Of a stretch of 64,000 nucleotides of DNA, positions 14,000-47,020 are shown piece by piece. The notes beneath the pieces were generated by a model that saw only the letters and a program-made list of their open reading frames with translations, made no database searches and was not told the DNA's origin. The DNA comes from Patescibacteria group bacterium. Its GTDB lineage: Bacteria > Patescibacteriota > Minisyncoccia > Phycocordibacterales > Phycocordibacteraceae. The stretch lies in assembly GCA_030837225.1 (NCBI GenBank), contig JAUPKX010000007.1:158657-222656 (forward strand), in the 5' to 3' direction. The first letter of the stretch is position 1, and the number at the start of each line of letters is the position of its first letter. The translations under genes and the position numbers were made by a program.

Positions 14000-15220
14000 C
14001 TAGAGAGCGTCTATTGCCTCGTCTGCGAGGTCCTGTGCCTCTTCAGCGAAGTCTATAGCGTCTTCATAGTCTTCGTCATCAAGGGCGTCTTCTGCGTCAT
14101 TGAGTGCGTCCTCAGCTTCGTCCAGAAGATCTTCTGCCTCGTTTATTCTTGAGCTTGAGCTATTTGAGTCATCAATCTCATCCTGCGCGTCGTTGATCGC
14201 TTCCTGCGCATCATCGATAGCGTCTTCTGCATCAGATTCGTCGTCATCACTGTTGCTGCTTGAACCTATTTCGTCGAGTGCTTCGTCAATAAGATCTTCA
14301 GCTTCGTCTGCTAGATCCATGGCTTCCTCGTAGTCCTCATCATCGAGAGCGTCCTCTGCCTCGCTTATGAGGTCCTCTGCTTCGTCGAGGAGGTCTTCAG
14401 CATCGTCAGTGTCTTCGCCATCATCATTTGCAGCATCGACCTCGTCCCTTGCGTCGTCGAGCGCATCATTTGCCTCGTCGATAGCGTCTTCAGCGTCTCC
14501 TTCGTCGGCATCGTTGTTGTCATCGTTGTCATCATCATTTCCACTGCCGTCGATCTCATCGAGAGCATCATCTATAAGATCAAGGGCCTCGTCCGCGAGC
14601 TCGTTTGCATCGCTATAATCCTCGTCAACGAATGCGTAGAGCGCAAGCGTGACCTTCTTATCTGCGTTAACGAGGAGTGCCTTTGAGTCTCCAACCTCAT
14701 CGCCTTCGTCTTTGGCGTTTTCATAATCATCCATCGCGTCCTCATGTGCGTCACGCGCATCAAGAATTGCGCTCCGTGCCTCAGTCTGCGCGGTGGAGGT
14801 TGGCTTTGGTGTCGGAATAACAGGCGTAGTTAGTTGTGGAGCGGGTACCGTTGGCTTCGGGACCGCTGGCGACGTGAGTACGATGTACTTCGCGCGCGAG
14901 ACCGGACCGAAGGTTCCTGTTGCAGGACTAATCCCGTTTGCAGTCTGCCACTTCTGGACTGCCGCTACGGTCTTCGTCTGGTACTGGTTTGTCTCATATC
15001 CCTTTGAGCCGACACCTGATGTCGAAATCGTAAAACCATTTGCGTTCAGGTACTGCTGGAGGCAACGTACCGCCTCGCTCTCGACACCGAGTTCAAGATT
15101 GCTTGTAAAGGTACAGGTCGCAGCGCGCGCTTGTGCTGGAATCATGAGCGTACTTGCAACGAGCATCATGCCGAGCACGATAAATGCTGCAGCGCTCTTT
15201 TGGATAGTGGTGATATTCAT
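14000..15220 (-). CDS. secreted peptidoglycan-binding (PG_binding_1-like) protein with very acidic Asp/Glu repeat tail
   Basis: Signal peptide; domain LGVESEAVRCLQQYLNANGF...VAAVQKWQTANGISPATGTFGP; Pro-rich linker; about 200 aa of D/E repeats (EAEDALDDEDYEEAMDLADEAEDLIDEALDEI occurring twice). Confidence 0.65.
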   Translation of the reverse strand: MNITTIQKSAAAFIVLGMMLVASTLMIPAQARAATCTFTSNLELGVESEAVRCLQQYLNANGFTISTSGVGSKGYETNQYQTKTVAAVQKWQTANGISPATGTFGPVSRAKYIVLTSPAVPKPTVPAPQLTTPVIPTPKPTSTAQTEARSAILDARDAHEDAMDDYENAKDEGDEVGDSKALLVNADKKVTLALYAFVDEDYSDANELADEALDLIDDALDEIDGSGNDDDNDDNNDADEGDAEDAIDEANDALDDARDEVDAANDDGEDTDDAEDLLDEAEDLISEAEDALDDEDYEEAMDLADEAEDLIDEALDEIGSSSNSDDDESDAEDAIDDAQEAINDAQDEIDDSNSSSSRINEAEDLLDEAEDALNDAEDALDDEDYEDAIDFAEEAQDLADEAIDAL

Positions 15221-15546: not shown

Positions 15547-15905
15547 AGCGAACGATAGGATGCGCAGCAGCACATCCCGACAGGAATACCTTCTCATGAA
15601 TCTCCTGTCTTCGCTATCCTAACAGATTTATATGATTTGCGGCAGAGAGCCTCAGAATCTCTTTAAGTTAGGTCTATGGGGGTCTCTTATTTTGTGGATA
15701 CATGTCGAATAGCTTCATGTCTCTCAACACAGAGGTCTTTGAGAGAGACTTATATAAAACCTAGCAAACGTAAGGGTATTTTTAGGACTATGAAGATTTC
15801 TTTAGGTTTGTCCTATGTCCTTTATCCCCAGTATCAACAGACTTATCCCCCTTTGTCCCAAAAGCAAAAGACAGCCGATTGGGCTGTCTTTTGCTTTCTC
15901 ACGCT

Positions 15906-15979
15906 TGGTGCGGATAGGGAGAATCGAACTCCCGCTATATCATTGGCAACGATATGTTCTACCACTAAACTATATCCGC
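15906..15979 (-). tRNA. tRNA-Gly (anticodon GCC), CCA encoded
   Basis: GCGGATATAGTTTAGTGGTAGAACATATCGTTGCCAATGATATAGCGGGAGTTCGATTCTCCCTATCCGCACCA on minus strand; hairpin terminator (AAAGACAGCC-gatt-GGCTGTCTTT) downstream at about 15870-15900. Confidence 0.85.
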
Positions 15980-16666
15980 GCTGGGTTTTATACTCTCATA
16001 ATACGCGCTATTCATCAATTCCCCTGGCATCAGGGATATCCACGCTAGAACCTTAGCCTTGAAATAGGCACTTGATACAGTAATCAAACAGACACCGTGC
16101 GAGAGACGTCGTGTCTTGTGGCGACCATTGATTGTTGTTGTTTTGGTGAAATTCTCCTCAGGCAGACCAGTGGCGGCCACCCAGTATCTCCGACACTGAT
16201 CATCATTTAAGTCAGGATAGATGAGTATTTGTGCCCTTACCCTTTCCATAGGTATTCGGCAAACATGTAAGACAAAGAACACATAAAGCCTAATCATTTC
16301 AGAGTCTGTGTTCGTAAGCCTTACGACAGATTTGCCAAGCTTCGTGCCTTCGCCCCAATACAGCATTATGCCTGCTATGAATAGCGGGTTGTATTTTAGG
16401 ACCTCGAATTCTTCAGTAGCTACCTTTCTCGCTTCATCGTACGCAAGCTCAAGATTCTTTCCACGCGTTTTGTTCAAAGTCCTAATTCTTAGAGTGTGTT
16501 GGACTCGAGCCGCTTCGGAAAGTTTGTCTCGTATTTTTTCAGACCAATCCTCTTTCCCGAACCATCCAGACAGGGTACTTCGCGGTACTTCAAGAATCTC
16601 GATAATTTCTTTATAACTCTTACCCGAAAGCCTTAGGTGCCTCGCGGCTTCTTTATCAGTACGCAT
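15965..16666 (-). CDS. HTH + LAGLIDADG-like homing-endonuclease-family protein, tRNA-adjacent
   Basis: N-terminal HTH (GKSYKEIIEILEVPRSTLSGWF), motif LFIAGIMLYWGEGTK resembling LAGLIDADG block; segment VVRLTNTDSEMIRLY alignable to the paralog at 63465; last 15 nt overlap tRNA-Gly 5' end; lower GC. Confidence 0.5.
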   Translation of the reverse strand: MRTDKEAARHLRLSGKSYKEIIEILEVPRSTLSGWFGKEDWSEKIRDKLSEAARVQHTLRIRTLNKTRGKNLELAYDEARKVATEEFEVLKYNPLFIAGIMLYWGEGTKLGKSVVRLTNTDSEMIRLYVFFVLHVCRIPMERVRAQILIYPDLNDDQCRRYWVAATGLPEENFTKTTTINGRHKTRRLSHGVCLITVSSAYFKAKVLAWISLMPGELMNSAYYESIKPSADIV

Positions 16667-18053: not shown

Positions 18054-19517
18054 ATGAAGTTCCCTGTTCCCCTTGAAGTTACACGTGTAACAACTGCACT
18101 CCAGGACGCTGGATACGAGGCCTACCTTGTCGGTGGCTGCGTCCGGGACCTCCTTTTAGACCGTACCCCTAAGGACTGGGATGTAACCACGAACGCAAAG
18201 CCCGAGCAGATCCAGGCAGTCTTCCCTGAATCCTTCTACGAGAACGACTTCGGAACCGTAGGAGTGAAGACCGGGAGCGAGGACCAGACGCTCGCAATTA
18301 TTGAGGTAACCCCCTACCGCACCGAAACTGGGTACTCCGACAAGCGTCGCCCCGACGCTGTATCGTTTGGGGATAACTTAGAAGAGGATCTCGCACGTCG
18401 CGACTTCACCATTAACGCCATTGCCCTTGATCCTTCTAAAGGACAGTTGATAGACCCTTATCAAGGACAAAAGGACATTGAGGCCCGTGTCTTAAGGACA
18501 GTTGGTGTACCTGCTGACCGGTTTGAGGAGGACGCTCTGCGTCTTATGCGTGCTGTGCGACTCGTAGCAGAGCTCGAGTTCGCACTCGACACTGATACTG
18601 CTGCCGCTATTAAGGAGAAAGGTTCGAACTTGGCGCACATTTCACGTGAAAGGATCAGGGACGAGTTTGTTCGCATCCTGAACTCAAACCAGCCTATGAT
18701 GGCGCTGGTATTGGCTCAGCAACTTGAGATACTTAGCTATATCGCACCTGACCTCTCCCGAGGTGTGGGTATCGACCAGAATCAGGCCCATAGCTACGAC
18801 GTTTTTGGGCACCTTATGCGTGCTCTCCAGCATGCTGCAGATAAGGGCTGGGGGCCAGATATACGCCTTGCAGCAGTATTCCATGACGTATCTAAGCCAG
18901 AAACTAGGCGCTGGTCTGACGAGAAGAATGACTGGACCTTCCATGGGCACGAAGTGGTTGGTTCACGTGTAACCCGAAAGGCCCTTGAAGACCTTAAGTT
19001 TTCACGTGAAACTATCGAAAGAGTGAGCAAATTGGTTCGTTGGCACATGTTCTTCTCAGATCCTGACCAGATTACCCTTTCGGCCGTTCGCCGTATGATT
19101 AGGAACGTTGGGGAGGAAAATATCTATGATCTCCTCAATCTCCGTATTTGTGACCGTATTGGAACAGGGAGGCCGAAAGAACAGCCATTCCGCTTCCGCA
19201 GATATAAGGCCATGGTTGAGGAGGCCCTTCGCGATCCGATATCCGTAGGCATGCTTAAGACTGACGGTTCACGGATAATGGAGAAGTTCCACGTGCAACC
19301 GGGTCCAAAGATAGGTTTTGCCCTCCACGCGCTCCTTGAGGAGGTTCTTGAGGACCCAAAGAGGAATACTGAGGAATACCTGGACACCCGGACTGTAGAG
19401 CTTCTGGCGCTGCCTGAGGCAGATCTTAAGGCGCTAGGGGAGTCAGGCAAGAAGAGGAGGGAAGAGGAGGAGGAACGGGAAATCCAGGAAATACTTGAAA
19501 AGCACCACGTTGGGTAG
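18054..19517 (+). CDS. cca: CCA-adding tRNA nucleotidyltransferase with HD domain
   Basis: Pol-beta NTase head (GGCVRDLLLDRTPKDWDVTT), HD motif (VFHDVSKPE), C-terminal charged tail. Confidence 0.9.
   Translation: MKFPVPLEVTRVTTALQDAGYEAYLVGGCVRDLLLDRTPKDWDVTTNAKPEQIQAVFPESFYENDFGTVGVKTGSEDQTLAIIEVTPYRTETGYSDKRRPDAVSFGDNLEEDLARRDFTINAIALDPSKGQLIDPYQGQKDIEARVLRTVGVPADRFEEDALRLMRAVRLVAELEFALDTDTAAAIKEKGSNLAHISRERIRDEFVRILNSNQPMMALVLAQQLEILSYIAPDLSRGVGIDQNQAHSYDVFGHLMRALQHAADKGWGPDIRLAAVFHDVSKPETRRWSDEKNDWTFHGHEVVGSRVTRKALEDLKFSRETIERVSKLVRWHMFFSDPDQITLSAVRRMIRNVGEENIYDLLNLRICDRIGTGRPKEQPFRFRRYKAMVEEALRDPISVGMLKTDGSRIMEKFHVQPGPKIGFALHALLEEVLEDPKRNTEEYLDTRTVELLALPEADLKALGESGKKRREEEEEREIQEILEKHHVG
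18998..19013. promoter_or_regulatory. parS-like site GTTTTCACGTGAAACT (13/16 to TGTTTCACGTGAAACA), inside cca coding sequence
   Basis: Palindromic CACGTG core flanked by TTT/AAA; weaker copies also at 18638-18653 and 18961-18976. Confidence 0.5.
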
Positions 19518-19533
19518 GTTTTCACGTGGAACA
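19518..19533. promoter_or_regulatory. parS-like site GTTTTCACGTGGAACA (14/16)
   Basis: Matches the B. subtilis-type parS family TGTTNCACGTGAAACA; directly after cca stop. Confidence 0.6.
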
Positions 19534-19549
19534 CGCTTAAAACTAGATT

Positions 19550-19571
19550 AAAGCCCGTATATACGGGCTTT
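19550..19571 (+). terminator. hairpin terminator after cca (AAAGCCCGTATATACGGGCTTT)
   Basis: Perfect palindrome; near-identical hairpin recurs at 45684-45705. Confidence 0.5.
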
Positions 19572-19576
19572 AATGC

Positions 19577-19592
19577 TGTTTCATGTGAAATA
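19577..19592. promoter_or_regulatory. parS-like site TGTTTCATGTGAAATA (14/16)
   Basis: Same palindromic family with C-to-T changes. Confidence 0.5.
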
Positions 19593-19735
19593 TGACCATA
19601 TAGCAGAAGACCGCCTGGGAAGGCGGTCTCTTCTGTAATGCGTCCAAGGCGGCGGGAAAGGTTGGGGAAGGGGCTTTGGATGGTTCCCGCCAAGAGAGTA
19701 TGGACATAACAGGACAAACGAACTGATGATTTGTG

Positions 19736-19751
19736 CTTTTCACGTGGAACT
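19736..19751. promoter_or_regulatory. parS-like site CTTTTCACGTGGAACT (13/16)
   Basis: TTTTCACGTGGAAC 14-mer identical to the copy at 19520-19533. Confidence 0.55.
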
Positions 19752-20003
19752 AGTTTATGCCGGACCCGGTCGATATGTGGAGGATACGCCTCGTCGTCGG
19801 TCAGCTATAACACGTCACACGCTACTTGCACCTGATGAAGTGAACAAAGAGCTCGCAAAGAACATCGCCACCCTTAAGGGGTGGCGTATCTCTCGCGAGC
19901 TTTGCCCAACCCCCTCAGGTCTTTATAGATAGTACTCTTCTATAGGACAGAGTAAAGGACAACTCTGTGGATAGAGTGGATAACTTGTCTTTTATAATGT
20001 CCT

Positions 20004-20798
20004 TTAGAGCGTAATGGACACAGGGCAGTGGTCAGAACCGTATATATCAGCGTGTATCTCAGCGCCCTTAACTTTTGCTGAGAATTTCTTTGAGGCGAAT
20101 ATGTAATCGATTCGCCAGCCTACATTGCGATCACGCGCCATCCGAAACGGGCTCCACCAGGAGTAGTGGCCGTTGCCTTCGGTGAACATTCGGAACGTAT
20201 CGATGAATCCTGCTTCCTGGATCTGATCAATACCTGCTCGCTCTTCCTTGGTATATCCGTGCCCGCCCTCGTTTGCCTTAGGGTTTGCGAGATCGTCTGG
20301 CGTATGTGCGACGTTCAAATCCCCGCAGAAAATAACAGGTTTCTCCTCTTCGAGACGCTTCATATAGGTTAGGAAAGCAGGGTCCCACTTTTCGTGGCGA
20401 AGACTGAGACGGGATAGGTCTTCCTTGGAGTTCGGAGTGTAGACCGACACAACCCAGAACTGGCCCATATCTGCAGCGATAATACGGCCCTCCTCGTTCG
20501 GGTCTCCGTACTCGTCGTCAGAAAGGCCGTATTCCTTGGCTATATCTTCGGGCATACCAAAAAGCACATCCTCGGGAATCTGCTTGGTGAATATGGCAGT
20601 TCCGCTGTAGCCCTTTCGATTCTTTGCTGAATGCCAGTATTCCTCATATCCCATGAGATCAACAGGGGATTGGTGCTGCTCAGCTTTGGTTTCCTGGAGA
20701 CAGATGATGTCTGGCTTTAATTGCTTTATAAACGGCTCAAACAGGCCCTTCTTGTGAACGGCTCGGATGCCATTTACGTTCCAAGAAACGATTCTCAT
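20004..20798 (-). CDS. xth: exodeoxyribonuclease III (AP endonuclease, EEP family)
   Basis: MRIVSWNVNGIRA...CLQETK...GDLNVAH...SDHCPV motifs. Confidence 0.9.
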   Translation of the reverse strand: MRIVSWNVNGIRAVHKKGLFEPFIKQLKPDIICLQETKAEQHQSPVDLMGYEEYWHSAKNRKGYSGTAIFTKQIPEDVLFGMPEDIAKEYGLSDDEYGDPNEEGRIIAADMGQFWVVSVYTPNSKEDLSRLSLRHEKWDPAFLTYMKRLEEEKPVIFCGDLNVAHTPDDLANPKANEGGHGYTKEERAGIDQIQEAGFIDTFRMFTEGNGHYSWWSPFRMARDRNVGWRIDYIFASKKFSAKVKGAEIHADIYGSDHCPVSITL

Positions 20799-29101: not shown

Positions 29102-32100
29102 ATGCAGCACCTCGAAGGCCTTAACGACGCGCAACGGGAAGCCGTCCTAGCCACCGAGGGTCCGGTCTCAGTCCTCGCGGGTGCCGGATCGGGCAAAACA
29201 CGGGTTCTAACCACCCGCATCTACCATCTTATAAAGGAAGGGGTGCCCGCTAACCGGATTCTCGCCGTTACCTTCACCAACAAGGCCGCCCGAGAGATGA
29301 GAGAGCGCCTCGCGCACAGACTCGGGGATAGTCCGCTCCCGTTTGTAGCTACGTTCCATGGCCTTGGCCGGGATATTCTCCAGCGATACGGCAGTCGCAT
29401 TGGTATCTCTCGTTATTTCACGATATTTGATCGCGATGACTCGAAATCCGCCATAAAGAGGGTATTGAAGGAGATGGATATCGACCCAAAGGAGATGAAT
29501 CCAAACTTTGTCCTTTCCCGCATCTCGAAAGAAAAGGGAGAAGGCTCCACTCCCGATGCTTTCCGTGAGAAGTACGCACAGAAGAGCTTCCAGTCCCGTG
29601 TTATCGCTGAAGTCTGGCCCAAGTACGAAGCAATACTCAAGAAGGAGAAGGCGCTCGACTTCGACGATCTTATTTGTCTTCCGGTGCGCTTGCTTCGCGA
29701 GCACGAGGACATCCGTAGGGAAGCGGAGCAGCTCTACAGCCACGTACACGTGGACGAGTTCCAAGACACCAACGAACTGCAGGGCAAGCTCGTCGACATG
29801 CTCACACAACCACAGAACAATGTGTTCGTGGTAGGGGATATTGACCAGTGTCTTCTTGCCGGAACAGAAGTGCGCATGGCAGATGGTTCGAAAAAATCTA
29901 TCGAACTAATTCAAGAAGGGGATTCTGTTCTGTCTAATTTTGGAAGTGGGGATATGCGGGCCGCAAGCGTTATAAGAGCCATGAAGCGAGAGTTCTCTGG
30001 AGACTTGGTTCACATCATCACTATGTCTGGACGCACCCTTACAAGCACGCCGGAGCATATTCACTTTGCCGGATACCGACTAGGTGTCGTACCCCAGAAA
30101 TACTTTACCTACCTGATGTACAAAAAGGGGAAAGGGTGGCGTCTTGGCGTCTCGCAGACCTATACCAACGGCCAGCGCGCGCCCATGATCGGATTTCAGC
30201 AGCGATGCAACCAAGAGCACGGGGACAGTGTGTGGATTGTTGGCGTATTTGACTCGGCACAGGAAGCACGCGTGCACGAGTACAAACTCTCGTTAACGTA
30301 TGGCATTCCAACGCTCCCTTTCGTAGCGCGAAAGGGAAGCGTAGGCGGGTATATCCATGACCAGGAAACGCTTGATGCGGTATTCGCATCATTCGATACT
30401 GATGCCGCCGCAAGAAAACTCTTATCAGACCGTGGACTCTCTCTTTCCTATCCCCATCATCGTGCTCAAGCAACGCGCAGCAACAGAAGGAATATTCTTA
30501 TCACACTATGTGGGGACCACAGGGGTAGCACACCCATGCATCGCATATCGATTGTTGGGAGCGATGATATAGGAAAAGAGGCACTGGTAGCGGCAGGATT
30601 TTCAGTACGTTCAGCAGGGTTAGGTTCGATGAGTTGGAGATTTGAGACCGCCCATGCCGATTACGGCAAGGCGAGAGAAATCTCTGATCGACTCCTCATA
30701 ATATTTCCAGATGCTCAGGTCGTAGAAACCGCGCGTCTCGGAGGAAAGAAAACAAACCCTAAGGATTCGAACTCATTGCCATTTCTTCCCGCTGCCTCGG
30801 TGCTGCCAGGTATGGCCATGTTCGACGACGAAGCTGGATGGGATATCGTCGAGTCTGTAGAACGTGTTCCTGGGAACAAGATACCCGTCTATGACTTAAA
30901 CATTGAAGGGACACATAACTTCATTGCAAACGGTCTTTCAACACACAATTGTATCTACACCTGGCGAGGCGCTACAATCGAGAACCTGCTCAAGTTCGAA
31001 GAGCAGTACGAGAACGCAAAGACCATCGTGCTCGCGCATAACTATCGTTCAACAAAAACAATTGTTGCTGCAGGAAACCAGATAATCGAGAAGAATCAGA
31101 ACCGCAAGGATAAGCATGCAGTAACCGACAACGCGGATGGGGAACCGATACGCTTACACATTGCGCGCAACGCAGAAAGCGAAGCTCGATGGGTGGCGCG
31201 TGAAGCGAGGAAAGCTATACGGGAAGGCGTTTTACCTGAAGAAGTTGCCGTACTGTTCCGTACGAACTTCCAGTCTCGTGCTCTTGAGGAAGCGTTCCTC
31301 TCAGAAGGCCTCCCATACAAGGTGCTCGGTACGCGCTTCCTTGATCGCAAAGAAGTGAAGGACGTACTCGCATGGGTCAGACTTGCACTTGATCCAGAAC
31401 GCGAAGTGGACCGCATCCGCGCCGTACAGGCACCAACGCGCGGAATAGGGAAAGTGACCCTCGGCAAGCTTATCGACGGAAAGAGGGACACTTTGAAGCC
31501 TGCAGAAGTGAAGAAGGTAGCGGCATTCGAAGCTATCGTTATGGAACTGAACGAACTCGCAAAGATTGCGGTGCCGAGCGAATTCGTAAAGCTCGTCATT
31601 GAGCGCTCAGGATTAGCCGAAGCGCTGCGTAAGGGCGGGGAAGAGGACGCCGAGCGCCTTGAGAACGCGAAGGAGCTCGCAACCTTAGCCAGCCGCTATG
31701 ACGGCATGCCAGGAGAGGAGGGAATTGCAGCATTTCTGGCGGAGTCCGCCTTAGCTGGCGACCAAGACGAGCTCGACGCACCAGGCACTGCCGGCATTAC
31801 CCTTATGACCGTACACGCAGCCAAGGGACTTGAGTTCGATACCGTATTTGTTACCGGCATGGAGCAGGGATTGTTCCCGCACGAAGCGAGAGAGGGGGAG
31901 AAGCGGGACGAGGAAGAGGAGCGCCGCTTGTTCTATGTAGCGGTTACGCGCGCAAAGCGCAGGCTTAATCTCACGCTCGCAACCGTTCGTCGCATCTATG
32001 GCACCGACTTCGCCTCGGAACCTTCCATGTTCATCCGCGACATAGACGAGGGGCTTATCAGTTTCTCAGAAGGGGACGAGCTCTATGGAGAGCGTACGAT

Positions 32101-32110
32101 ATACATCTAG
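29102..32110 (+). CDS. uvrD: UvrD/PcrA-family DNA helicase interrupted by an intein in motif III
   Basis: Walker A AGSGKTRVLT, DEFQDT, then VVGDIDQ | intein | CIYTWRGA, downstream helicase motifs IV-VI. Confidence 0.9.
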   Translation: MQHLEGLNDAQREAVLATEGPVSVLAGAGSGKTRVLTTRIYHLIKEGVPANRILAVTFTNKAAREMRERLAHRLGDSPLPFVATFHGLGRDILQRYGSRIGISRYFTIFDRDDSKSAIKRVLKEMDIDPKEMNPNFVLSRISKEKGEGSTPDAFREKYAQKSFQSRVIAEVWPKYEAILKKEKALDFDDLICLPVRLLREHEDIRREAEQLYSHVHVDEFQDTNELQGKLVDMLTQPQNNVFVVGDIDQCLLAGTEVRMADGSKKSIELIQEGDSVLSNFGSGDMRAASVIRAMKREFSGDLVHIITMSGRTLTSTPEHIHFAGYRLGVVPQKYFTYLMYKKGKGWRLGVSQTYTNGQRAPMIGFQQRCNQEHGDSVWIVGVFDSAQEARVHEYKLSLTYGIPTLPFVARKGSVGGYIHDQETLDAVFASFDTDAAARKLLSDRGLSLSYPHHRAQATRSNRRNILITLCGDHRGSTPMHRISIVGSDDIGKEALVAAGFSVRSAGLGSMSWRFETAHADYGKAREISDRLLIIFPDAQVVETARLGGKKTNPKDSNSLPFLPAASVLPGMAMFDDEAGWDIVESVERVPGNKIPVYDLNIEGTHNFIANGLSTHNCIYTWRGATIENLLKFEEQYENAKTIVLAHNYRSTKTIVAAGNQIIEKNQNRKDKHAVTDNADGEPIRLHIARNAESEARWVAREARKAIREGVLPEEVAVLFRTNFQSRALEEAFLSEGLPYKVLGTRFLDRKEVKDVLAWVRLALDPEREVDRIRAVQAPTRGIGKVTLGKLIDGKRDTLKPAEVKKVAAFEAIVMELNELAKIAVPSEFVKLVIERSGLAEALRKGGEEDAERLENAKELATLASRYDGMPGEEGIAAFLAESALAGDQDELDAPGTAGITLMTVHAAKGLEFDTVFVTGMEQGLFPHEAREGEKRDEEEERRLFYVAVTRAKRRLNLTLATVRRIYGTDFASEPSMFIRDIDEGLISFSEGDELYGERTIYI
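29849..30949 (+). mobile_element. intein (367 aa) within uvrD
   Basis: Starts Cys (CLLAGTEVRMADG), block B GRTLTSTPEH, C-terminal VYDLNIEGTHNFIANGLSTHN followed by +1 Cys; flanking extein halves re-form helicase motif III. Confidence 0.8.
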
Positions 32111-32977: not shown

Positions 32978-33994
32978 ATGGCTCATTCTACCCGCACCCT
33001 CCGCATCGCAGGCGCATCTTTACTCGCTGTTTTCATGGTCGGCGGCACATATCTTTCGACAGGACCTAATCCCTTCTTTGGCATGACGCGCATCGCAGGC
33101 GCGCAGTCCTCAGAAGAACTTCTTCGTGAGTATGCCGCTAAGGATAGCGACGCTGACGGACTTCCTGATTGGCAGGAATCCTTGTATGGGACCGATCCCT
33201 TGAATCCTGAATCCTTCCAGGCAGGGATTAAGGACGGGGAAGCGGTTGCTCAGGGTCTTATCGAGCCGAAGGTTGTTGTTCGTCCGGAAGAGGAACCGAT
33301 TGACCCGAATAGTATCCCGGGTATCGATGCGGTTCCTGATTCGCTCACCGATCGATTCTCTCAGACTCTCCTAAAGCAGTATCTGCTTAATAAGGGGACC
33401 GAACCACCCACACAAGAGGAAATACTCGCGTTCGTGCAGCAGGGTGTCGCGGAACTCTCCGCGACCTTTGTGCCGAAAGATGCCTACAGTTCTGCACAGG
33501 TGCGCTCTTCCGGTACTTCCGGGGAAGCTGCTCTGCGTGCGTATGCGGCACAAGTAGATGCTGCATTTGAAACACATACCGTGTCCTCAGAGAAGAACGA
33601 GCTCTTCTATTTCGAGGATGCTATGAAGGGCAGCACGAGTGCTCTTAAGAAGATTGCTGATATCAGCGAGGCATACACCAATATCGCTGACGCGCTTATG
33701 GACATCCCGGTACCACAAGAAGCACAGCGTGCTCACCTTTCGATCGTGAACGCGCTCATGCAGATGAGTGATGTGACCGAGCACATGGCTTCAATGGAGA
33801 GCGATCCACTTCGAGCGCTCATGGGTATCGGACTGTATCAGCAGTCTGCTGACCGGGTTGTTACCGCCCTTACCGGCATGCACGGAATCTTTACTGCTCT
33901 ACAGGTAACGATACCGGCTGGGACGGACGGATATGAACTGGTTCAGATGGCGAACTATGCCGCGCAGGTTTCTGCTAAGAACTCAGCACAATAG
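32978..33994 (+). CDS. membrane-anchored hypothetical protein, first gene of T4SS-like operon
   Basis: N-terminal TM LRIAGASLLAVFMVGGTYL; no recognised domain. Confidence 0.45.
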   Translation: MAHSTRTLRIAGASLLAVFMVGGTYLSTGPNPFFGMTRIAGAQSSEELLREYAAKDSDADGLPDWQESLYGTDPLNPESFQAGIKDGEAVAQGLIEPKVVVRPEEEPIDPNSIPGIDAVPDSLTDRFSQTLLKQYLLNKGTEPPTQEEILAFVQQGVAELSATFVPKDAYSSAQVRSSGTSGEAALRAYAAQVDAAFETHTVSSEKNELFYFEDAMKGSTSALKKIADISEAYTNIADALMDIPVPQEAQRAHLSIVNALMQMSDVTEHMASMESDPLRALMGIGLYQQSADRVVTALTGMHGIFTALQVTIPAGTDGYELVQMANYAAQVSAKNSAQ

Positions 33995-33995
33995 T

Positions 33996-35477
33996 ATGTC
34001 TTTCTTCTCAAACTCTCGCTCCATACTTGCAGGACTCGCGTTTCTCCTCATGCTCAGCGTAGCGACGCCAGCTCATGCGCAGGTTCCAATTCCAGCACCA
34101 CAACCTGTTGTAGACGTTTTGGGTGTTCCTGTTCAAAAACTGAATCTGATAGAGAGTATCGTAAGTGCCGCGAATAGCGCGGCTGATCACACGCTCGAGT
34201 ATGTTTTGAACGGGCTCGCGTGGGATGTCGCGAACCTCGCCATTGAGTCCATGACGAAGAGTATCGTTAACTGGATTAACTCGGGCTTCGAAGGCTCTCC
34301 TGCCTTCGTTACGGATCTCGAATACAACTTGCGCGGCTTAAGCGATGCGGTCGCCGACCGTTTCTTTGATGAGCTTGCGGTATCTACGCAAGCCATTTTT
34401 GAGGCTAATGGCCAGGACAGAGTGCTCGACGCTGTCCGGCTCGCATATTACCTGCGCACGAGCCCTGAATCCTTCTATGTACGGTACCCAAATACTCTTG
34501 GCCAGGTAAGTTCAGACCATCGCGCATTTCTTGATGGGGATTTTAGCCAGGGAGGCTGGAACGCCTGGATTTCAGCCAGCCTTAACCTGACCAACAATCC
34601 GTATGGTCAGCGAGCACTTCTTGAGGACGAGCTTTCAGGACTCCTCGCAAGCGCAACAGGCAACCGTCTTCAGGAATTGTCGTGGGGAAGCGGTTTCCGC
34701 TCACTACGTGCGTGTGACACCGAAGGTACGGGACCCGCAATTGCCTCCTCTACGGAAATCAGCCTGAGCGGTGTCGAGCCGTGTGCTTTTGGAGAGATGC
34801 GTACACCTGGCTCGGTGATCCAGCGCCAGTTGAACGATGCTCTTGGTTCCGGTAGGGATCGGCTCATCGTTGCGGATGATTTTAACGAGATCGTCGGTGC
34901 TCTTCTAAACCAGCTCGTCGGCCATGTACTTGGTGCAAACAATTCTGGAGGTTTGAGTGGAGTTTCTCGCCCATCAGCTGGTGGCGGTGCTTCGTTCCTC
35001 GACCGGTCAACAGATCCTTCGCAGAATACGGGAAGTGGTGTTCGTACTGCTGCTTCCTTCACCGCAACAATCGAGGATCAGCGTCGTATCGTTAAAACAT
35101 ATCAAGCGAACTGGGAGAAGATACGCGGCGCAGCGGATACCGCAGCAGCAAAGTGCCCGAACAACTCTGACGCGGAGAACGTAGTGACCAGAGCACAAGC
35201 GGCACTAATAAAGGCGGCGGATGCGTTAGCGAAGTTCGATGACCTCCTTTCGCGCATTGCAGCAGCGAATGCTGCGGGAGGGAATCAGAGTACCGCAATA
35301 TCAGGAATTGCGAACGATTTCACTATTCTTAGCCGTTCAGTAATTGTTCCAACTGGAGAGGAGATAGCAGAAGCCAAGATAGAGTCGCAGGATACTGGAG
35401 ACCTCGAGCCAGGCTCGCTCTACAGCCAGATGGTGCGTGCTGCGAAAGCTACCTCATGCCAGGCGAGTGGGGAGTAA
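33996..35477 (+). CDS. secreted hypothetical protein (T4SS-like operon)
   Basis: Signal peptide MSFFSNSRSILAGLAFLLMLSVATPAHAQ; track start 33933 overlaps previous gene. Confidence 0.45.
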   Translation: MSFFSNSRSILAGLAFLLMLSVATPAHAQVPIPAPQPVVDVLGVPVQKLNLIESIVSAANSAADHTLEYVLNGLAWDVANLAIESMTKSIVNWINSGFEGSPAFVTDLEYNLRGLSDAVADRFFDELAVSTQAIFEANGQDRVLDAVRLAYYLRTSPESFYVRYPNTLGQVSSDHRAFLDGDFSQGGWNAWISASLNLTNNPYGQRALLEDELSGLLASATGNRLQELSWGSGFRSLRACDTEGTGPAIASSTEISLSGVEPCAFGEMRTPGSVIQRQLNDALGSGRDRLIVADDFNEIVGALLNQLVGHVLGANNSGGLSGVSRPSAGGGASFLDRSTDPSQNTGSGVRTAASFTATIEDQRRIVKTYQANWEKIRGAADTAAAKCPNNSDAENVVTRAQAALIKAADALAKFDDLLSRIAAANAAGGNQSTAISGIANDFTILSRSVIVPTGEEIAEAKIESQDTGDLEPGSLYSQMVRAAKATSCQASGE

Positions 35478-35527
35478 TTCCTATGATACGGACCTTACTT
35501 GAGAGGATTCGTAGGGGAGGATTGTCT

Positions 35528-37645
35528 ATGAAGCTACCGGTATCTGCATTTCTCGCAGGGTTTCTACTCGTAACACCACTGACTGCACAGGCAGCGGGTG
35601 CTGCTGATGTTCTTTCATGGGTTGGTAGGCAGGTGGGTGGGGCATTTGTCGACATCTTGTCTTTAATGGTTGTGCCGATAGCGTTTGTGTTCCTTTCGAT
35701 TTCAAATTTCGTACTTTGGGTCTCTGGACTCGTATTCAACTGGGCAGTTATCCGGACCGTATTCCAGTTTGGAACCTACTTTGGCACCTCTGATGAGATG
35801 TTAACCGCTTGGGGCGTCATGCGGGATGTCGCCAACATCGGCCTTTTGTTCGGTTTCATATTCATGGGAGTGCTTCTCATCCTGAACGTTGAGGGGGGAG
35901 GGCATGGACACGGGGGAGGCATCAGTGCCAAGAAGGCTATCCCGAGGCTTCTTATATTCGCCGTGCTTGTGAACTTCAGTTTGTTCACCACTCAGGCGGT
36001 TATTGATGTGTCTAACGGCCTTGCCTCGGTGTTTGCTGAGCAGGCAGGACAGAAGTGTGATCTTGTTGGTGATGCTGAGAAGTGCGCGAATCTAGGAATC
36101 GCGTCCGTTATATCTCAGCGTGCAGGCATAACGACTATTTTTGCAGGCGGCCCCAACCCACTTACTGATCCGCTAAAGACTGCTGTAGTGTATGTCGGTC
36201 TTTCAATATTCGTCATGATTACGGCGATGGTCCTTTTGGCTGGAGCCATCATGTTTATCTATCGTGCAGTGGTGCTCTCGTTCCTTATGGTTACGTCGCC
36301 CATAGGCTTTGCGGGTATGGCGATTCCTTCCCTTAAGAAAATCGCAGACGAGTGGTGGAGCAAACTAATCTCTCAGGCGTTCTTTGCTCCAGTGTATCTC
36401 CTTTTGATATTCATTAGCCTCAAGCTAACTGAGACGTTGGCTAAGGTCTCAGTGGAGGGTGGGGGTAAGGGCAGTCTTGCGAGTGCGCTCGCTGGAACCG
36501 GAGGAGAGCCGGGCACCGAGGCAGGGAATATACAGATTGTGCTCGTGTTTATGGTTGTTATTGGGTTCATGATGGCGTCCCTTGTGACAGCAAATAAGAT
36601 GGGGGCTGTGGGAGCGAAGTTTGCAACTAAGACTGCCGGCGCTCTTACGATTGGCACCGCTGGGTTCGTTGGTCGCAGGACGCTTGGAAGGGCTTCGACC
36701 AGAATTGCCAACAATATTAGGCGTTCGCCCCTTGGCGAAACCGAGGCTGGGCGCCGCCTGGCTGGGATTGCAGATTATGGTTCTAAGGCGAGTTATAGCT
36801 TGAGGAATGTGGGTAACAAGGCGTTGAGTGGTGCGGGAGCAGGAATAGATATTGGAACGGCAAATAAGACTGCCGGACATGGATACCACGGCATTGAAGA
36901 GAAGGCAGTGAAGGAACGCGTTGACTATGCCAAGAGTCTTAAGGGCCCAAGAGGAGAATCGGATCAAGAGATGGAGTACCGTCTTGCGCACCAGGAGGCG
37001 AGCCTTATTAACGCAAACAGTAATTACGACGCTGCGGAAACCTCACTGTCTACATCGCAAGCAGCGCGTAACTCACAGCAAATGGTTCGAGATAACGTCG
37101 CGTTCTCTGTTGCCGAACAAGAGAGAATTATCGCCAGCAATCCAGCTGATACAGATGCATACAGGGTGCTCGCTGAACTTAAGTTGCAGCTTGCAAAAGA
37201 AGAACAGGCGCTTACTCAATCAGACCGAGACCTTAAGAAGGCGAATGATACCTTGGCAAAAGCTACAACTGACCGCGCTAACGCAATGAAGGCTGCAGAA
37301 AACACTGATCGAGGCTACGTGGAAGAGAAGGATCGTCAAAGAGGCTATGCCCGTAACCTAGACTCACGTGCGCTTATAGTAGGAGAAGACGGAAAGCCTG
37401 TTCGAGGACCCGCAGGACGTCCTCGCGGAGCCTTTGATTTAATCTCAGGAGATCATGCTTTCACACTTGCACACCACGCAGAACACGAAGCCTCCGGAGA
37501 CATAGTTAAGTATGCAGGTAAGGATGCAACGGAGCGTGCACTGGACACCCTTAAAAAACAGATGAGTAAGGCTGATAAGCCAGCAGATGCACCTGCACCA
37601 AGCACAAGTGGACCATCTACGGGCGGTGGCGGTCCTAGTCATTAG
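35528..37645 (+). CDS. VirB6/TrbL-like polytopic membrane protein with C-terminal coiled-coil extension
   Basis: GGAGGA RBS before MKLPVSAFLAGF signal; six or more TM helices with Gly-rich loops; long charged coiled-coil tail. Confidence 0.55.
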   Translation: MKLPVSAFLAGFLLVTPLTAQAAGAADVLSWVGRQVGGAFVDILSLMVVPIAFVFLSISNFVLWVSGLVFNWAVIRTVFQFGTYFGTSDEMLTAWGVMRDVANIGLLFGFIFMGVLLILNVEGGGHGHGGGISAKKAIPRLLIFAVLVNFSLFTTQAVIDVSNGLASVFAEQAGQKCDLVGDAEKCANLGIASVISQRAGITTIFAGGPNPLTDPLKTAVVYVGLSIFVMITAMVLLAGAIMFIYRAVVLSFLMVTSPIGFAGMAIPSLKKIADEWWSKLISQAFFAPVYLLLIFISLKLTETLAKVSVEGGGKGSLASALAGTGGEPGTEAGNIQIVLVFMVVIGFMMASLVTANKMGAVGAKFATKTAGALTIGTAGFVGRRTLGRASTRIANNIRRSPLGETEAGRRLAGIADYGSKASYSLRNVGNKALSGAGAGIDIGTANKTAGHGYHGIEEKAVKERVDYAKSLKGPRGESDQEMEYRLAHQEASLINANSNYDAAETSLSTSQAARNSQQMVRDNVAFSVAEQERIIASNPADTDAYRVLAELKLQLAKEEQALTQSDRDLKKANDTLAKATTDRANAMKAAENTDRGYVEEKDRQRGYARNLDSRALIVGEDGKPVRGPAGRPRGAFDLISGDHAFTLAHHAEHEASGDIVKYAGKDATERALDTLKKQMSKADKPADAPAPSTSGPSTGGGGPSH

Positions 37646-37662
37646 TCTGTAAAATTATTGAA

Positions 37663-38478
37663 ATGGATGCTCCAGAAATTTCTGACGAGAATGTTACCGA
37701 CGCCATGGGCGTCCTCATAGGAGGACTTCCAAAGCCGGTGCAAGAATTCTTGTTGAGCGACGAGAGAAACGCGGTGGCAAGCGAACTATCGAACAAGTAC
37801 GGTCTCCATGCAGATCAAGCAGGGAAGTTCGAAGAGGCATACCTGCACATGCTTCTAGGTATAGCAACACCTGAAGATTTTGTATCTTCCCTCAAGAAGG
37901 CTGGGGTGCAGCAAGAGGTAATAAACGGTCTTGCGGCCGATGTTAATACGCGCGTGTTCATGCGTCTGCGCGATGCTGAACGCCTAGGAACTCCAATAAC
38001 GGATACGCCGCCACCAACACCGAGTAAGCCCGCTCCTCTTCCTCCTCCCGCTCTCGACTATCAGCCAGCAGCAGTTCCAACTCTCCCCGGGTCTCCGGTG
38101 CCAGCACCTATGCCCCCTGCTCCAGCAGTAGTAGCACCCGTTCTTGCAGCTGCTGAACCGACACCAGTGCCGCAACCCCTAGCTCCTCAGCAGCATTTCG
38201 TTCACACGATGCCTAGTTCCCAGCAGCAACAGGGCTGGCACCCTGCCGCGGCGGTTCATATCTTCGTTCCGACGCATGGAGCACCTATGCAGATGAGCGC
38301 GCCAGCACCGCAAGCACCCGTTCAAGAAACTCCTGTTTACAATGCTGCTTATTCTGAGCCAGCTCCAACCGTTCCTGTGCAGCCTGTATATGTAAACCCG
38401 GAGCAAACACCAGTAGCTCCTGCTGCTGTAATTCATAAAGAGTACAGTGCCGATCCGTATCGCGAGCCCGTGCAGTAG
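37663..38478 (+). CDS. Pro-rich hypothetical protein (T4SS-like operon)
   Basis: PPPTPSKPAPLPPPALDYQPAAVP low-complexity region. Confidence 0.45.
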   Translation: MDAPEISDENVTDAMGVLIGGLPKPVQEFLLSDERNAVASELSNKYGLHADQAGKFEEAYLHMLLGIATPEDFVSSLKKAGVQQEVINGLAADVNTRVFMRLRDAERLGTPITDTPPPTPSKPAPLPPPALDYQPAAVPTLPGSPVPAPMPPAPAVVAPVLAAAEPTPVPQPLAPQQHFVHTMPSSQQQQGWHPAAAVHIFVPTHGAPMQMSAPAPQAPVQETPVYNAAYSEPAPTVPVQPVYVNPEQTPVAPAAVIHKEYSADPYREPVQ

Positions 38479-38521
38479 AAAAAAGGGAAGTGGTTTCAGG
38501 TATCAGGTATACTGATACGTA

Positions 38522-38929
38522 ATGGAGTACCAGATACCACAGTTCATCGAGGTTGAGGACAAGATATTCGGACCGTTCACGCTGAAGCAGTTTATCTATG
38601 TCGCTGGTGGGGTGGGACTTTGCGCCATTGTGCTCCTATATTTGCCACTTTGGCTTGGTGTAATCATCGGTCTGCCGGTAGGACTGCTAACCTTGGCGCT
38701 CGCGTTCTATAAGATAAACAATAAGCCGTTCGTTGAGATCATGGAGGCGGCATTTAACTACTACATCGGGGACCGACTATACCTTTGGAAGAAAGAGAAG
38801 AACCAGGTAGACGCTCCTGTTATCGTGAAGCCTGCGGATCCTGCAAAGCTCGGCCTCACGCAGAGCAAGCTCAAGGACTTGGCCTGGTCGCTCGACATCA
38901 AGGACCGCGAGAACAACAATCCTGCATAG
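38522..38929 (+). CDS. PrgI/VirB3-like small membrane protein
   Basis: QIPQFIEVEDKIFGPFTLKQFIYVAGG followed by two TM helices, the PrgI-family signature. Confidence 0.6.
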   Translation: MEYQIPQFIEVEDKIFGPFTLKQFIYVAGGVGLCAIVLLYLPLWLGVIIGLPVGLLTLALAFYKINNKPFVEIMEAAFNYYIGDRLYLWKKEKNQVDAPVIVKPADPAKLGLTQSKLKDLAWSLDIKDRENNNPA

Positions 38930-38932
38930 ATC

Positions 38933-39562
38933 ATGGCATCTACCAAGACTACCCAATCATTCGTACCTGTTAAGGAAGTAAGGAACGGCGTCATCGTCCT
39001 CAAGGGCGACGGGTACCGAGGTGTACTCATGTGTTCGTCGATTAACTTCGCTCTGAAAGGGGAGGATGAGCAGCGCGCCATCATCGGCGGATTCCAGAGC
39101 CTTTTAAATACGCTCGATTTCTCCATACAGATCGTTGTCCATTCACGTAAGACCGATATACGCCCTTATCTCGCACTACTTGAGACTCGCATGCAAGAGC
39201 AGACGAGCGAGCTTATGCGGTTGCAGCTTCGCGAGTACGTCGCCTTCATTCGGAACTTCATTGATTCGAGCGACATCATGACAAAAATGTTCTACATCGT
39301 AGTGCCGTACACGCCAGGAGCCGGAGGCATCGTTGCCAGTGCCGCACCGTTCCTTGGAGGAAAGAAGTCCGCAAACGACGGAGCGACAGATTCGTTCGAA
39401 GAGAATCGTGTGCAGCTCGAGCAGCGCATGTCGCTCGTGGTATCGGGCCTTGCCAGTAGCGGGGTACGCGCAGTGCCGCTTGGCACTGAGGAAATAATCG
39501 AGTTGTTGTACCGTTCATTCAACCTGAGCGAGCTCGAGAACCCTATCCATCTATCCGCGTAA
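38933..39562 (+). CDS. VirB4-like ATPase, N-terminal portion (separated from the ATPase body by one in-frame TAA)
   Basis: Same reading frame as 39566-41380; stop TAA at 39560-39562 then TCT ATG. Confidence 0.45.
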   Translation: MASTKTTQSFVPVKEVRNGVIVLKGDGYRGVLMCSSINFALKGEDEQRAIIGGFQSLLNTLDFSIQIVVHSRKTDIRPYLALLETRMQEQTSELMRLQLREYVAFIRNFIDSSDIMTKMFYIVVPYTPGAGGIVASAAPFLGGKKSANDGATDSFEENRVQLEQRMSLVVSGLASSGVRAVPLGTEEIIELLYRSFNLSELENPIHLSA

Positions 39563-39565
39563 TCT

Positions 39566-41380: not shown

Positions 41381-41391
41381 CGCACTCTGCC

Positions 41392-42165
41392 GTGGCCAAC
41401 GAACGGATTCAAGTGAGGCAAGGGCAAGGCACCGATGATTCTTTAAATAAGGTCGCGGAGCTGTTTGCTTCGCGGGGTGAGAAGTTTGATGAAGAGGATG
41501 CGCAGATGCTCCAAGAGAAGCTGCCGACCGATCCTGGGTTTCCGTTCATGATTACGGCGTTGGTGGTTATTAAAGACCTTCTCGATTTAGTTCTCGATGC
41601 AACCGTTATTCTCGCTATTGTTGCCTGGGTCCTGTCGGCCATAATCGGCATTATCCTGGTGTTCTGGACGTTCGGAAAGATTAGCGGAGGCTGGTGGAAG
41701 AAGGGCGCCATACAGTGGCTTTGGAAGCGATTCTTCTTGATGATTAGTGTCGAGCTAATTCCGTTCCTTAACATAATGCCTACGAACGTCATTTACGTAC
41801 TCATGGTGCATTACCGAGAGAAGAAGATTGTGAAGCTTTTTAACGAAGCGCTCGAGATATTCCATGGCGGGGGTGGGGGCAAGCCAGGGGTATCGGGACG
41901 ACAGGCATTTCTGCGAGGACTCGCAAACAGGGCGGAGGAAGACGAAGAAGAAAATACCGTATCTAAAGCGGGCAGGACCATTACCCGACTTACACAATCA
42001 CCCGCAGGGAAGATGGTTAGAACCGCAACTAAGTTTGATCCGACTAAAAGAACTGCGGTAGGCACAGCACGATTCTCGAGTATGAACGCCACCAGGCAGA
42101 AGCAACTCAGTCGAAAAACGTCCCAAGGGCCGCAAGGGTCCGAAGCACTACGCGAAGCAGCGTAA
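41392..42165 (+). CDS. membrane protein, hypothetical (T4SS-like operon)
   Basis: Three TM helices then Gly-rich and basic disordered tail. Confidence 0.45.
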   Translation: MANERIQVRQGQGTDDSLNKVAELFASRGEKFDEEDAQMLQEKLPTDPGFPFMITALVVIKDLLDLVLDATVILAIVAWVLSAIIGIILVFWTFGKISGGWWKKGAIQWLWKRFFLMISVELIPFLNIMPTNVIYVLMVHYREKKIVKLFNEALEIFHGGGGGKPGVSGRQAFLRGLANRAEEDEEENTVSKAGRTITRLTQSPAGKMVRTATKFDPTKRTAVGTARFSSMNATRQKQLSRKTSQGPQGSEALREAA

Positions 42166-42219
42166 CCTTACCCACGCCGCAAGCAGGGGACTGTCTCTAC
42201 TTCGGTATATACTGAGCAC

Positions 42220-43197: not shown

Positions 43198-43203
43198 CCA
43201 CTT

Positions 43204-44445: not shown

Positions 44446-44448
44446 ACC

Positions 44449-46783: not shown

Positions 46784-46920
46784 TAGACAGTGAGCTTCGA
46801 GCGACCCTTGCGGCGTCGGCGAAGGAGAACAGCGCGTCCTGTAGGGGTACTGGTACGGGCTCGGAAGCCGTGCGTACGCGCGCGCTTACGCTTTTTCGGC
46901 TGATAGGTGCGCTTTGGCAT
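46783..46920 (-). CDS. rpmH: 50S ribosomal protein L34
   Basis: Translation [45 protein letters not shown] (45 aa); absent from ORF track because under 60 aa. Confidence 0.85.
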
Positions 46921-47009
46921 ATGCACAGGATACTAACAGGTTGACGGGAGAGTAGCAAGCAAAAGCCTTGTCGGGCCCCCGGTCGCGCATTTTTGAAACG
47001 TCCGTATAC

Positions 47010-47018
47010 TTATCCACA
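47010..47018 (+). promoter_or_regulatory. perfect DnaA box TTATCCACA just upstream of dnaA
   Basis: Exact consensus 9-mer, 3 nt before dnaA ATG. Confidence 0.6.
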
Positions 47019-47020
47019 CG

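Follow-up and report, generated by a model that had tools for sequence, protein, structure and literature searches.

Conserved parS-like sites spanning cca and the cca-xth spacer of a Patescibacteria genome: a probable chromosomal centromere at a putative replication origin

Because almost no member of the Candidate Phyla Radiation (CPR) has been cultivated, there has been next to no work on how these bacteria replicate and segregate their chromosomes. Here, we analyze a 64-kb stretch of DNA (henceforth termed the window) from an uncultivated Patescibacteria (CPR) bacterium, in which a cluster of palindromes resembling chromosomal parS, the loading site of the partition protein ParB, occupies a housekeeping gene and the non-coding DNA behind it. 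The gene is cca (18054–19517, plus strand; Pfam PolyA_pol, PolyA_pol_RNAbd, HD and tRNA_NucTran2_2), which encodes a CCA-adding tRNA nucleotidyltransferase of 487 amino acids and has orthologues in 80 genomes. It converges with xth (20004–20798, minus strand; Pfam Exo_endo_phos), a gene of the exonuclease III family that bounds the cca-xth spacer on its other side. A preliminary description of this DNA, made from its letters alone, had proposed that the palindromes form the ParB-loading centromere of the chromosome.

Eight parS-like sites with the core GTTyCACGTGrAAC fall within 18077–19751, a span of 1.7 kb comprising cca and the following spacer. Every one of them is centered on CACGTG or CAYGTG, and each deviates from TGTTTCACGTGAAACA at two to four positions. 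Five of the eight are embedded in the cca reading frame, from codon 8 to codon 416. The first, AGTTACACGTGTAACA (18077–18092, codons 8–13), is a perfect 14-bp palindrome and lineage-specific. The second, CATTTCACGTGAAAGG (18638–18653, codons 195–200, HISRER), has a perfect 12-bp core and is found in 60/80 orthologues, followed by TGGTTCACGTGTAACC (18959–18974, codons 302–307, VGSRVT; 52/80 orthologues), GTTTTCACGTGAAACT (18998–19013, codons 315–320, KFSRET; 73/80) and AGTTCCACGTGCAACC (19285–19300, codons 411–416, KFHVQP; 69/80). The remaining three sites lie in the spacer. GTTTTCACGTGGAACA (19518–19533) begins directly after the cca stop codon, and most relatives have a site 0–30 bp past the stop. 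TGTTTCATGTGAAATA (19577–19592) is a CATGTG variant matching the consensus at 14/16 positions; relatives carry sites at the same position, many of them with a CATGTG or CACATG center. CTTTTCACGTGGAACT (19736–19751) is the best-conserved spacer site, with the consensus GCTTTCACGTGGAACY and more than 90% column identity over 49 aligned spacers.

Seven of these palindromes, including the CATGTG variant at 19577, had been listed in the preliminary description, and all seven are present, with starts shifted by 0–2 bases. Its scores of 13–14 out of 16 to the parS consensus for the best four are correct, and the 14-mer TTTTCACGTGGAAC does occur twice verbatim, at 19519 and 19737. The site at 19285, the 14-bp core of which is a perfect fit to GTTnCACGTGnAAC, was overlooked. 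The description further assigned only two copies to coding sequence, where we count five, and restricted them to the 3′ half of cca, from which the positions of the sites at 18077 (codons 8–13) and 18638 (codons 195–200) depart. Two coding copies encode S-R-E, as it stated (18638 and 18998); the copy at 18959 encodes S-R-V.

The window was scored by mismatches to TGTTTCACGTGAAACA at cut-offs of ≤3 and ≤4, with 100 shuffles as control. At ≤3 mismatches there are five matches versus 0.18 expected, a number that none of the 100 shuffles reached, and all five lie within 18077–19592. At ≤4 mismatches, 8 of 11 matches belong to the cluster, and the remaining three lack the CACGTG core. The bare hexamer CACGTG occurs 14 times in the whole window versus 14.3 expected, with 7 of the 14 occurrences inside 18082–19746. 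No comparable site was found elsewhere in the 64-kb window, and no extra parS in the ca. 6 kb past its right end.

For comparison across relatives, we scanned species-representative genomes with the cca protein and obtained 80 loci at cca identities of 72–97%. These relatives are Patescibacteria metagenome-assembled genomes (MAGs) labelled Paceibacterota, Parcubacteria or Kaiserbacteria, save for a few evident mislabels (uncultured Saccharibacteria, Bacillota, Methylobacter). Taxon labels of MAGs are unreliable here: one locus of the cca clade (L029) is labelled Bacillota and another (L071) Methylobacter, and many are labelled uncultured Saccharibacteria. The gene order, with cca followed by xth and xerD on the opposite strand, is kept in nearly all relatives, and the convergent cca-xth spacer is always long, ca. 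330–650 bp at the 76 loci where it could be delimited and on which the motif counts in spacers below are based.

Sites with ≤3 mismatches to parS were counted in cca plus the next 700 bp and compared with 1.26 Mb of flanking DNA. All 80 genomes carry the cluster, with 2–9 sites each (median 6), some of them a single mismatch away from parS. In total, 323 sites in cca plus 700 bp stand against 3 in the flanks, corresponding to 1.96/kb versus 0.0024/kb and an approximately 800-fold enrichment. Within cca, the sites recur at offsets of about 584, 903, 944 and 1231 nucleotides, joined by 2–4 sites just past the stop codon; a mean of 2.5 further sites per genome falls in non-coding DNA, whose other sequence aligns poorly. 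This distribution bears on the idea that the palindromes belong to a repeat dispersed over the genome and dense here by happenstance, for instance a miniature mobile element, an uptake sequence or the target of restriction or methylation. CACGTG is indeed a known type II restriction site, yet it is neither avoided nor enriched across the window, the extended motif is nearly absent from the 1.26 Mb of flanks, and the sites occupy orthologous codons instead of behaving as insertions. We consider an origin of the cluster in such a repeat extremely improbable.

Within cca, the sites coincide with strong synonymous constraint. We measured this constraint as the entropy deficit at the synonymous level in 5-codon windows along the gene, in which the four conserved coding sites take ranks 1, 2, 3 and 5. 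Their deficits amount to 5.63 bits (18959), 5.50 bits (18998), 5.26 bits (18638) and 3.95 bits (19285), against a mean of 0.94 and a standard deviation of 0.98. At 18638, orthologues in which the site is present use the codons GTT/ATT TCA CGT GAA AGR, whereas those in which it is absent drift to TCx AAR GAR CGY. The codons at 18959 are mostly GTT GGT TCA CGT GTA ACA, two mismatches from parS; relatives use TTT TCA CGT GAA ACN at 18998, and orthologues TTY CAC GTG NAA at 19285. This coupling of codon choice to the site, with fixed codons in orthologues that have it and drifting ones in those that do not, together with the top-ranking synonymous constraint, points to a function at the level of the DNA rather than to chance or protein coding, and shows that the coding copies are maintained by synonymous-codon selection. 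The site at 18077 has a different history. It is missing even from a 97%-identical relative, and both this and a 94%-identical relative have TCC (Ser) where the present genome has ACA (Thr). The site thus appears to have been born of a non-synonymous Ser-to-Thr codon change (TCC to ACA), which suggests that sites are still being gained.

The opposite reading, in which the sites have no function at the DNA level and reflect constraint on S-R-E/S-R-V in CCA enzymes, shared ancestry or chance, can draw on two observations: three coding sites encode conserved S-R residues, and the window-wide total of CACGTG is at chance level. It is already contradicted by the codon pattern described above, in which synonymous codons are fixed only together with the site, and by the rank of the sites among the most constrained windows of cca. 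It also leaves aside the approximately 2.5 sites per genome in poorly alignable non-coding DNA and the ca. 800-fold enrichment over the flanks, and orthologues at 72–97% cca identity are not near-identical strains. This reading, too, we regard as hardly credible.

To avoid circularity in the identification of the motif, we started from the bare hexamer CACGTG and profiled its flanks in the 76 spacers and in the flanking DNA. CACGTG is present at 4.0/kb in the spacers versus 0.20/kb in the flanks. The spacer copies are preceded by the parS half-site, with G (0.50), T (0.85), T (0.89) and T/C before CAC, whereas copies in flanking DNA lack such a context. The restriction of this context to the spacers argues that the functional unit is nGTTyCAC|GTGrAACn. 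When the half-site GTTyCAC is joined at CACGTG, the result equals the parS core at 14/14 informative positions. Positions 1 and 16 are free, and the center tolerates the variants CATGTG, CACATG and CGCGTG; more than 90% of the relatives' spacer sites have a CACGTG or CAYGTG center. The canonical chromosomal parS consensus, tGTTnCACGTGnAACa, is found in Bacillus subtilis, Caulobacter crescentus, Thermus and many phyla. A second known palindrome of related appearance is the Noc binding site (NBS, ATTTCCCGGGAAAT) of Firmicutes, which has a CCCGGG center, is scattered over the chromosome and is excluded from the terminus. Both the NBS and the sites described here are 14–16-bp palindromes with similar outer TTT/AAA arms, and the NBS is bound by a ParB-family protein. 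We rejected identity with the NBS, as the center is CACGTG and not CCCGGG and the sites form a single origin cluster instead of being dispersed.

The position of the cluster on the chromosome was assessed through replication polarity. Raw GC skew was dropped as a locator of the switch because it is dominated by gene orientation, and we instead used strand-corrected skew, i.e., G versus C at 4-fold degenerate sites, given in plus-strand terms for the genes of each strand separately. Around 20 kb in the window, the skew of plus-strand genes rises from about −0.32 on the left to about −0.05 on the right, and that of minus-strand genes from about −0.05 to about +0.29 (approximate means from per-gene values). 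A logistic change-point model places the best break between 19517 and 20004, with a log-likelihood gain of 32.8 compared with 6.5–8 at the dnaA boundaries; breaks from ca. 18 to 27 kb fit nearly as well. In relatives, analyzed in 2-kb bins, the cca-xth spacer is exactly where the skew jumps, by about +0.18, with higher skew on the right than on the left in 51/53 loci for plus-strand genes and in 34/40 for minus-strand genes. The plus strand is C-rich leftward and G-rich rightward of the spacer, which is the polarity of an origin.

The spacer also carries DnaA boxes. Among words enriched in the 76 spacers over the flanks, the parS words lead with ca. 110–120-fold, TAAAGGAC(A) is present in 76/76 spacers at ca. 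60-fold, and the DnaA box word TGTGGATA reaches 41-fold. DnaA boxes with ≤1 mismatch occur in 67/76 spacers. Of the 76 boxes, 74 point the same way, their median distance to the end of xth is 34 bp, and the spacers exceed the flanks 64-fold in density of perfect boxes. Canonical boxes number only one or two per spacer. In the window, the putative oriC core spans 19941–20020 and overlaps the xth stop codon. It comprises TATAGGACA, a forward copy of TAAAGGACA, tandem DnaA boxes TGTGGATAG-AGTGGATAA at 19966–19983 and the inverted elements TGTCTTTTA and TGTCCTTTA, in a symmetric arrangement. The DnaA protein encoded in the window has the canonical DNA-recognition motif GGRDHTTV. The AT content is 57% in the last 100 bp of the spacer versus 51% in the rest; neither a clear 13-mer nor a clear DnaA-trio array was recognized.

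None of the 76 spacers lacks the motif TAAAGGACA (reverse complement TGTCCTTTA), forward and inverted copies of which pair around the DnaA boxes. It also has a counterpart within cca: four TAAAGGACA-like 9-mers in one orientation lie on the plus strand at 18437–18500 (starts 18437, 18461, 18469 and 18492; codons 128–149), so that the cca coding sequence holds five parS-like and four TAAAGGACA-like sites. The internal array is found with 4–6 copies in 77/80 orthologues and forms an island of synonymous constraint. As a separate observation, TAAAGGACA appears again in the spacer between tRNA-Pro and tRNA-Gly (15780–15860), beside the DnaA-box-like sequences TTATCCCCA and TTATCCCCC.

The skew switch and the fixed DnaA box together make the cca-xth spacer the probable oriC of the clade, a role that we consider quite likely though putative. 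An origin beside dnaA (47021–48373), the other candidate, was rejected as the main origin since strand-corrected 4-fold sites in the window give no skew step there. In the sequence around dnaA (46784–47020 and 48374–48585), there is a perfect DnaA box at 47010, 2 bp before the start codon, which looks like autoregulation, and two weak boxes lie in the dnaA-dnaN spacer. If the spacer is oriC, the parS-like cluster sits on the origin and not merely near it. The preliminary description had argued from the dnaA gene, which it correctly placed about 27 kb away, that the cluster lies near oriC; the link to the origin stands by virtue of the skew switch, whereas a distance of 27 kb from the origin does not, the cluster being located at the probable origin itself. 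Its view of the 480-bp non-coding stretch as a nucleation zone for the partition complex holds insofar as three of the eight sites lie there, but the same stretch also contains a DnaA box, TAAAGGACA repeats, terminators and covarying hairpins and is probably oriC.

If the sites are parS, a ParB should be encoded in these genomes. A published survey of Parcubacteria (Nelson & Stegen 2015, PMC4508563, supplementary Table 1) lists an orthologue of COG1475 in 13/17 genomes, including C7867-001 to -006 and RAAC4. COG1475 is the ParB group and goes under "predicted transcriptional regulators" in older annotation. According to the same survey (PMC4508563), the gene, AB199_02395 in C7867-004, has a conserved position between miaA and dprA, far from cca by locus-tag order, and smc is listed in 14/17 genomes, including all eight C7867 genomes. 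Two of these genomes are among our relatives, C7867-001 as locus L042 and C7867-004 as locus L010, and both carry the cluster. On the basis of this table, a ParB-family protein is likely to exist in the clade; for the genome analyzed here, we only infer one. A ParA-ParB pair does occur on one contig labelled Patescibacteria group bacterium (L088, JBLNBS010000073.1, 782–2414), but we set it aside as probably mis-binned: its neighborhood, ParA-ParB-LarB-LarC-DUF4446, is of Firmicute type, and its ParB groups with Hydrogenispora/Bacillota proteins. The search for parA and parB that the preliminary description had suggested came back empty for the 64-kb window and the fetched loci; for the ParB family alone, the published table is positive in the related genomes C7867-001 to -006. 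We found no relevant paper on parS or ParB in Patescibacteria, Parcubacteria or the CPR.

Several observations weigh against the identification of the cluster as a parS centromere at an origin. In the 64-kb window, neither a six-frame scan for the GERR motif nor Pfam searches of ca. 40 open reading frames for ParBc and HTH_ParB returned a ParB, and the six-frame translation contains no ParA motif KGGxGK (deviant Walker A). Inspection by eye of the unannotated window proteins yielded no ParB or ParA, and the ca. 6 kb past the right end of the window no ParB. Queries with B. subtilis Spo0J and Soj in tblastn found no match in the window or in 82 loci (ca. 1.3 Mb in total), and searches of protein databases gave no ParB from the clade, the Spo0J query returning only Bacillus and a hand-made ParB consensus only Firmicute-like proteins. 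The published table has no COG1475 entry for C7867-007 and C7867-008, both of which have strong clusters (L018 and L026), and ParA (COG1192) is absent from it as well (PMC4508563). None of the eight sites of this genome is a perfect parS, and motif position 2/15 (G/C) is only ca. 50–63% conserved. That position is a recognized specificity position of parS. The genome scan covered 64 kb, and further clusters are possible. Finally, the origin call is built on skew and one or two DnaA boxes, beside a modest AT-rich stretch.

Some of these points would fit operators that resemble parS in looks only and serve another sequence-specific DNA-binding protein, for example a regulator associated with the origin or a factor controlling transcription of cca, xth or an RNA in the spacer. 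Apart from the missing ParB gene in the available sequence and the weak conservation of the outermost parS positions, the second unexplained conserved motif at the locus, TAAAGGACA, implies that unknown factors act there. Against such operators, the unbiased half-site GTTyCAC reproduces the parS core at all 14 informative positions, and 6–8 sites spread over 1.7 kb, mostly in coding sequence, are unlike the layout of an operator. An origin-proximal cluster that is unique in its surroundings is, moreover, the signature of parS, and a ParB-family COG has been reported in members of the clade. Taken together, we judge operators of this kind unlikely.

A further possibility is that a ParB paralogue recognizes the sites and serves not segregation but another function, such as Noc-like nucleoid occlusion or ParB-like regulation of initiation. 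ParA was seen neither in the window nor in the published Parcubacteria core table, and since the sites abut DnaA boxes, control of initiation is conceivable. However, Noc sites are dispersed and have a CCCGGG center, whereas the sites here have CACGTG and form one origin cluster. Absence of ParA is also compatible with segregation: ParB/parS systems without ParA that act through SMC are known, e.g., in Streptococcus pneumoniae. We therefore hold a paralogue with a different role to be distinctly improbable.

Most of the evidence is accommodated by a reading in which all eight palindromes are parS sites that together make up the ParB-loading centromere of this Paceibacteria/Kaiserbacteria-type chromosome; we assign this reading a probability of roughly 80%. 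The centromere put forward in the preliminary description is, in this respect, supported by the parS half-site, the conservation in 80 relatives, the synonymous selection on the coding copies and the position at the skew switch. Binding by ParB is proposed because of the identity of the motif with parS. A ParB-family CTPase encoded elsewhere in the genome would bind each GTTyCACGTGrAAC as a dimer, bind CTP, close into a clamp and slide onto the adjacent DNA. Six to eight loading sites in less than 2 kb could thereby give rise to one dense partition complex of ca. 2 kb that extends over cca, the spacer and the segment with the DnaA boxes. The freshly replicated origin would thereby be marked for segregation or organization, probably through recruitment of SMC and with or without ParA. 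From binding onward, the scheme would follow, by analogy, steps that are established ParB biology; ParB as the binder, firing of the spacer as oriC and involvement of SMC or ParA are what we infer rather than observe. With less than 250 bp between the parS-like sites and the DnaA boxes, the partition complex and initiation might influence each other, which we offer as speculation.

In architectural terms, the locus is best read as a fused origin-plus-centromere module that would reach into the coding sequence of cca. We extend this more tentatively, at odds we would put slightly short of even, to a specific proposal: in this large clade, origin and centromere may be fused in a module of ca. 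1.6 kb that has colonized the essential cca gene and the cca-xth spacer, 27 kb from dnaA, and in which an array of TAAAGGACA for a third origin factor accompanies parS and one or two DnaA boxes; such a module may work without ParA.

The spacer holds further conserved elements between the parS-like sites and the putative oriC core. A bidirectional terminator-like hairpin, ATTAAAGCCCGTATATACGGGCTTTAAT (19547–19574), lies between the first two spacer sites, has an equivalent in relatives that is likewise placed between two parS sites, and is probably the cca terminator. It is followed by a hairpin region (19603–19700) consisting of a stem-loop at 19603–19632 and a long stem GGCGGGAA...TTCCCGCC around a conserved apical AAGGAGCnGGGGC..TGG, which is present in the aligned spacers of relatives and could be a terminator or a small RNA. 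A small conserved hairpin, GAGG-ATACG-CCTC (19780–19792), shows compensatory changes: at three of its four pairs, both bases are replaced without loss of pairing, in 5, 15 and 8 of 32 sequences. At 19843–19886 on the minus strand, a conserved block, AACAAAGAGCTCGCAAAGAACA, and a hairpin, CGCCACCCCTTAAGGGTGGCG, read as terminator-like, for xth or a small RNA. A conserved block, AAAGAGCTCGCAAAGAACA, was also noted in the 19780–19886 region beside the conserved hairpins. The hairpins at 19603–19700 and 19780–19886 may represent a small RNA or the xth terminator. Searches of the spacer against Rfam gave no match at gathering or permissive thresholds, and RNAalifold predictions for the right half of the spacer, made for either strand, gave support to a single 4-bp hairpin, leaving the longer helices seen by eye unconfirmed on the MAFFT alignment. 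We make no claim of a non-coding RNA or of a larger RNA structure for the spacer.

Other genes of the window merit brief mention. Upstream of cca, a reading frame at 15965–16666 abuts tRNA-Gly(GCC) and encodes a 233-amino-acid protein with an N-terminal helix-turn-helix, a LAGLIDADG-like "YWGEGTK" segment and no Pfam match. In many relatives, its homologues are found shortly upstream of cca but at differing positions, suggesting that the gene is mobile and akin to a homing endonuclease. Further left, 14000–15220 encodes a secreted protein of 406 amino acids in which a peptidoglycan-binding domain precedes a long, very acidic (D/E-rich) repetitive region. To the right, a UvrD/PcrA-type helicase gene (29102–32110, 1002 amino acids) contains an intein between its helicase domains (Pfam Intein_splicing at residues 523–616). 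A run of same-strand genes at 32978–45666, mostly without Pfam match and including a TraG/VirB4-type P-loop ATPase (39566–41380), looks like a type IV secretion or conjugation-like cluster situated between the probable origin and dnaA.

The locus offers a conserved and testable landmark: it predicts the place of ParB loading and a clade-wide start of replication away from dnaA. This is relevant to origin-based estimates of growth rate from metagenomes, to the rotation and checking of assemblies of such genomes and to the design of vectors able to replicate or to be partitioned, as needed for first genetic systems in such bacteria. It also provides a clean natural example of regulatory DNA that synonymous selection has preserved within a coding sequence across long evolutionary distances. 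While parS sites as such are of a known kind, the layout would be notable if the fusion of origin and centromere and the third motif TAAAGGACA were confirmed; if true, the fused module would represent a minimal architecture for origin and segregation that is not known from any bacterium.

Compared with a typical bacterial oriC, in which DnaA boxes (TTATCCACA) usually adjoin dnaA, the putative origin shares a canonical DnaA box or tandem pair, a modestly AT-richer side, the skew polarity and a DnaA protein with the canonical recognition motif. It differs in its place, in a spacer between two convergent genes (cca and xth) and 27 kb away from dnaA, in having only one or two canonical boxes and in flanking these with an inverted set of uncharacterized TAAAGGACA repeats that are also found within cca.

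The closest known counterparts of the parS-like cluster are the chromosomal parS/ParB (Spo0J) centromeres, reportedly described by Lin and Grossman in 1998 and by Livny and colleagues in 2007. The cluster has the same 14-bp core palindrome, in several copies that are origin-proximal and rare elsewhere, and in B. subtilis, too, a site lies within coding sequence, in spo0J. Here, however, ParB binding is a prediction, none of the 80 fetched loci has a parAB operon within 10 kb, and most sites sit in one unrelated housekeeping gene, cca, under clade-wide synonymous selection. Dense arrays of about 10–24 parS sites near oriC are known from Myxococcus xanthus, Corynebacterium glutamicum and Streptomyces, where closely spaced sites by the origin serve one partition complex, as proposed here. 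Those arrays span ca. 10–35 kb or more beside parAB, whereas the sites described here, a median of six in ca. 1.7 kb, are packed into less than 2 kb apart from any parB. Unlike the chromosomal parS/ParB (Spo0J) centromeres, in which parS lies kilobases off the origin, the present cluster overlaps the probable oriC.

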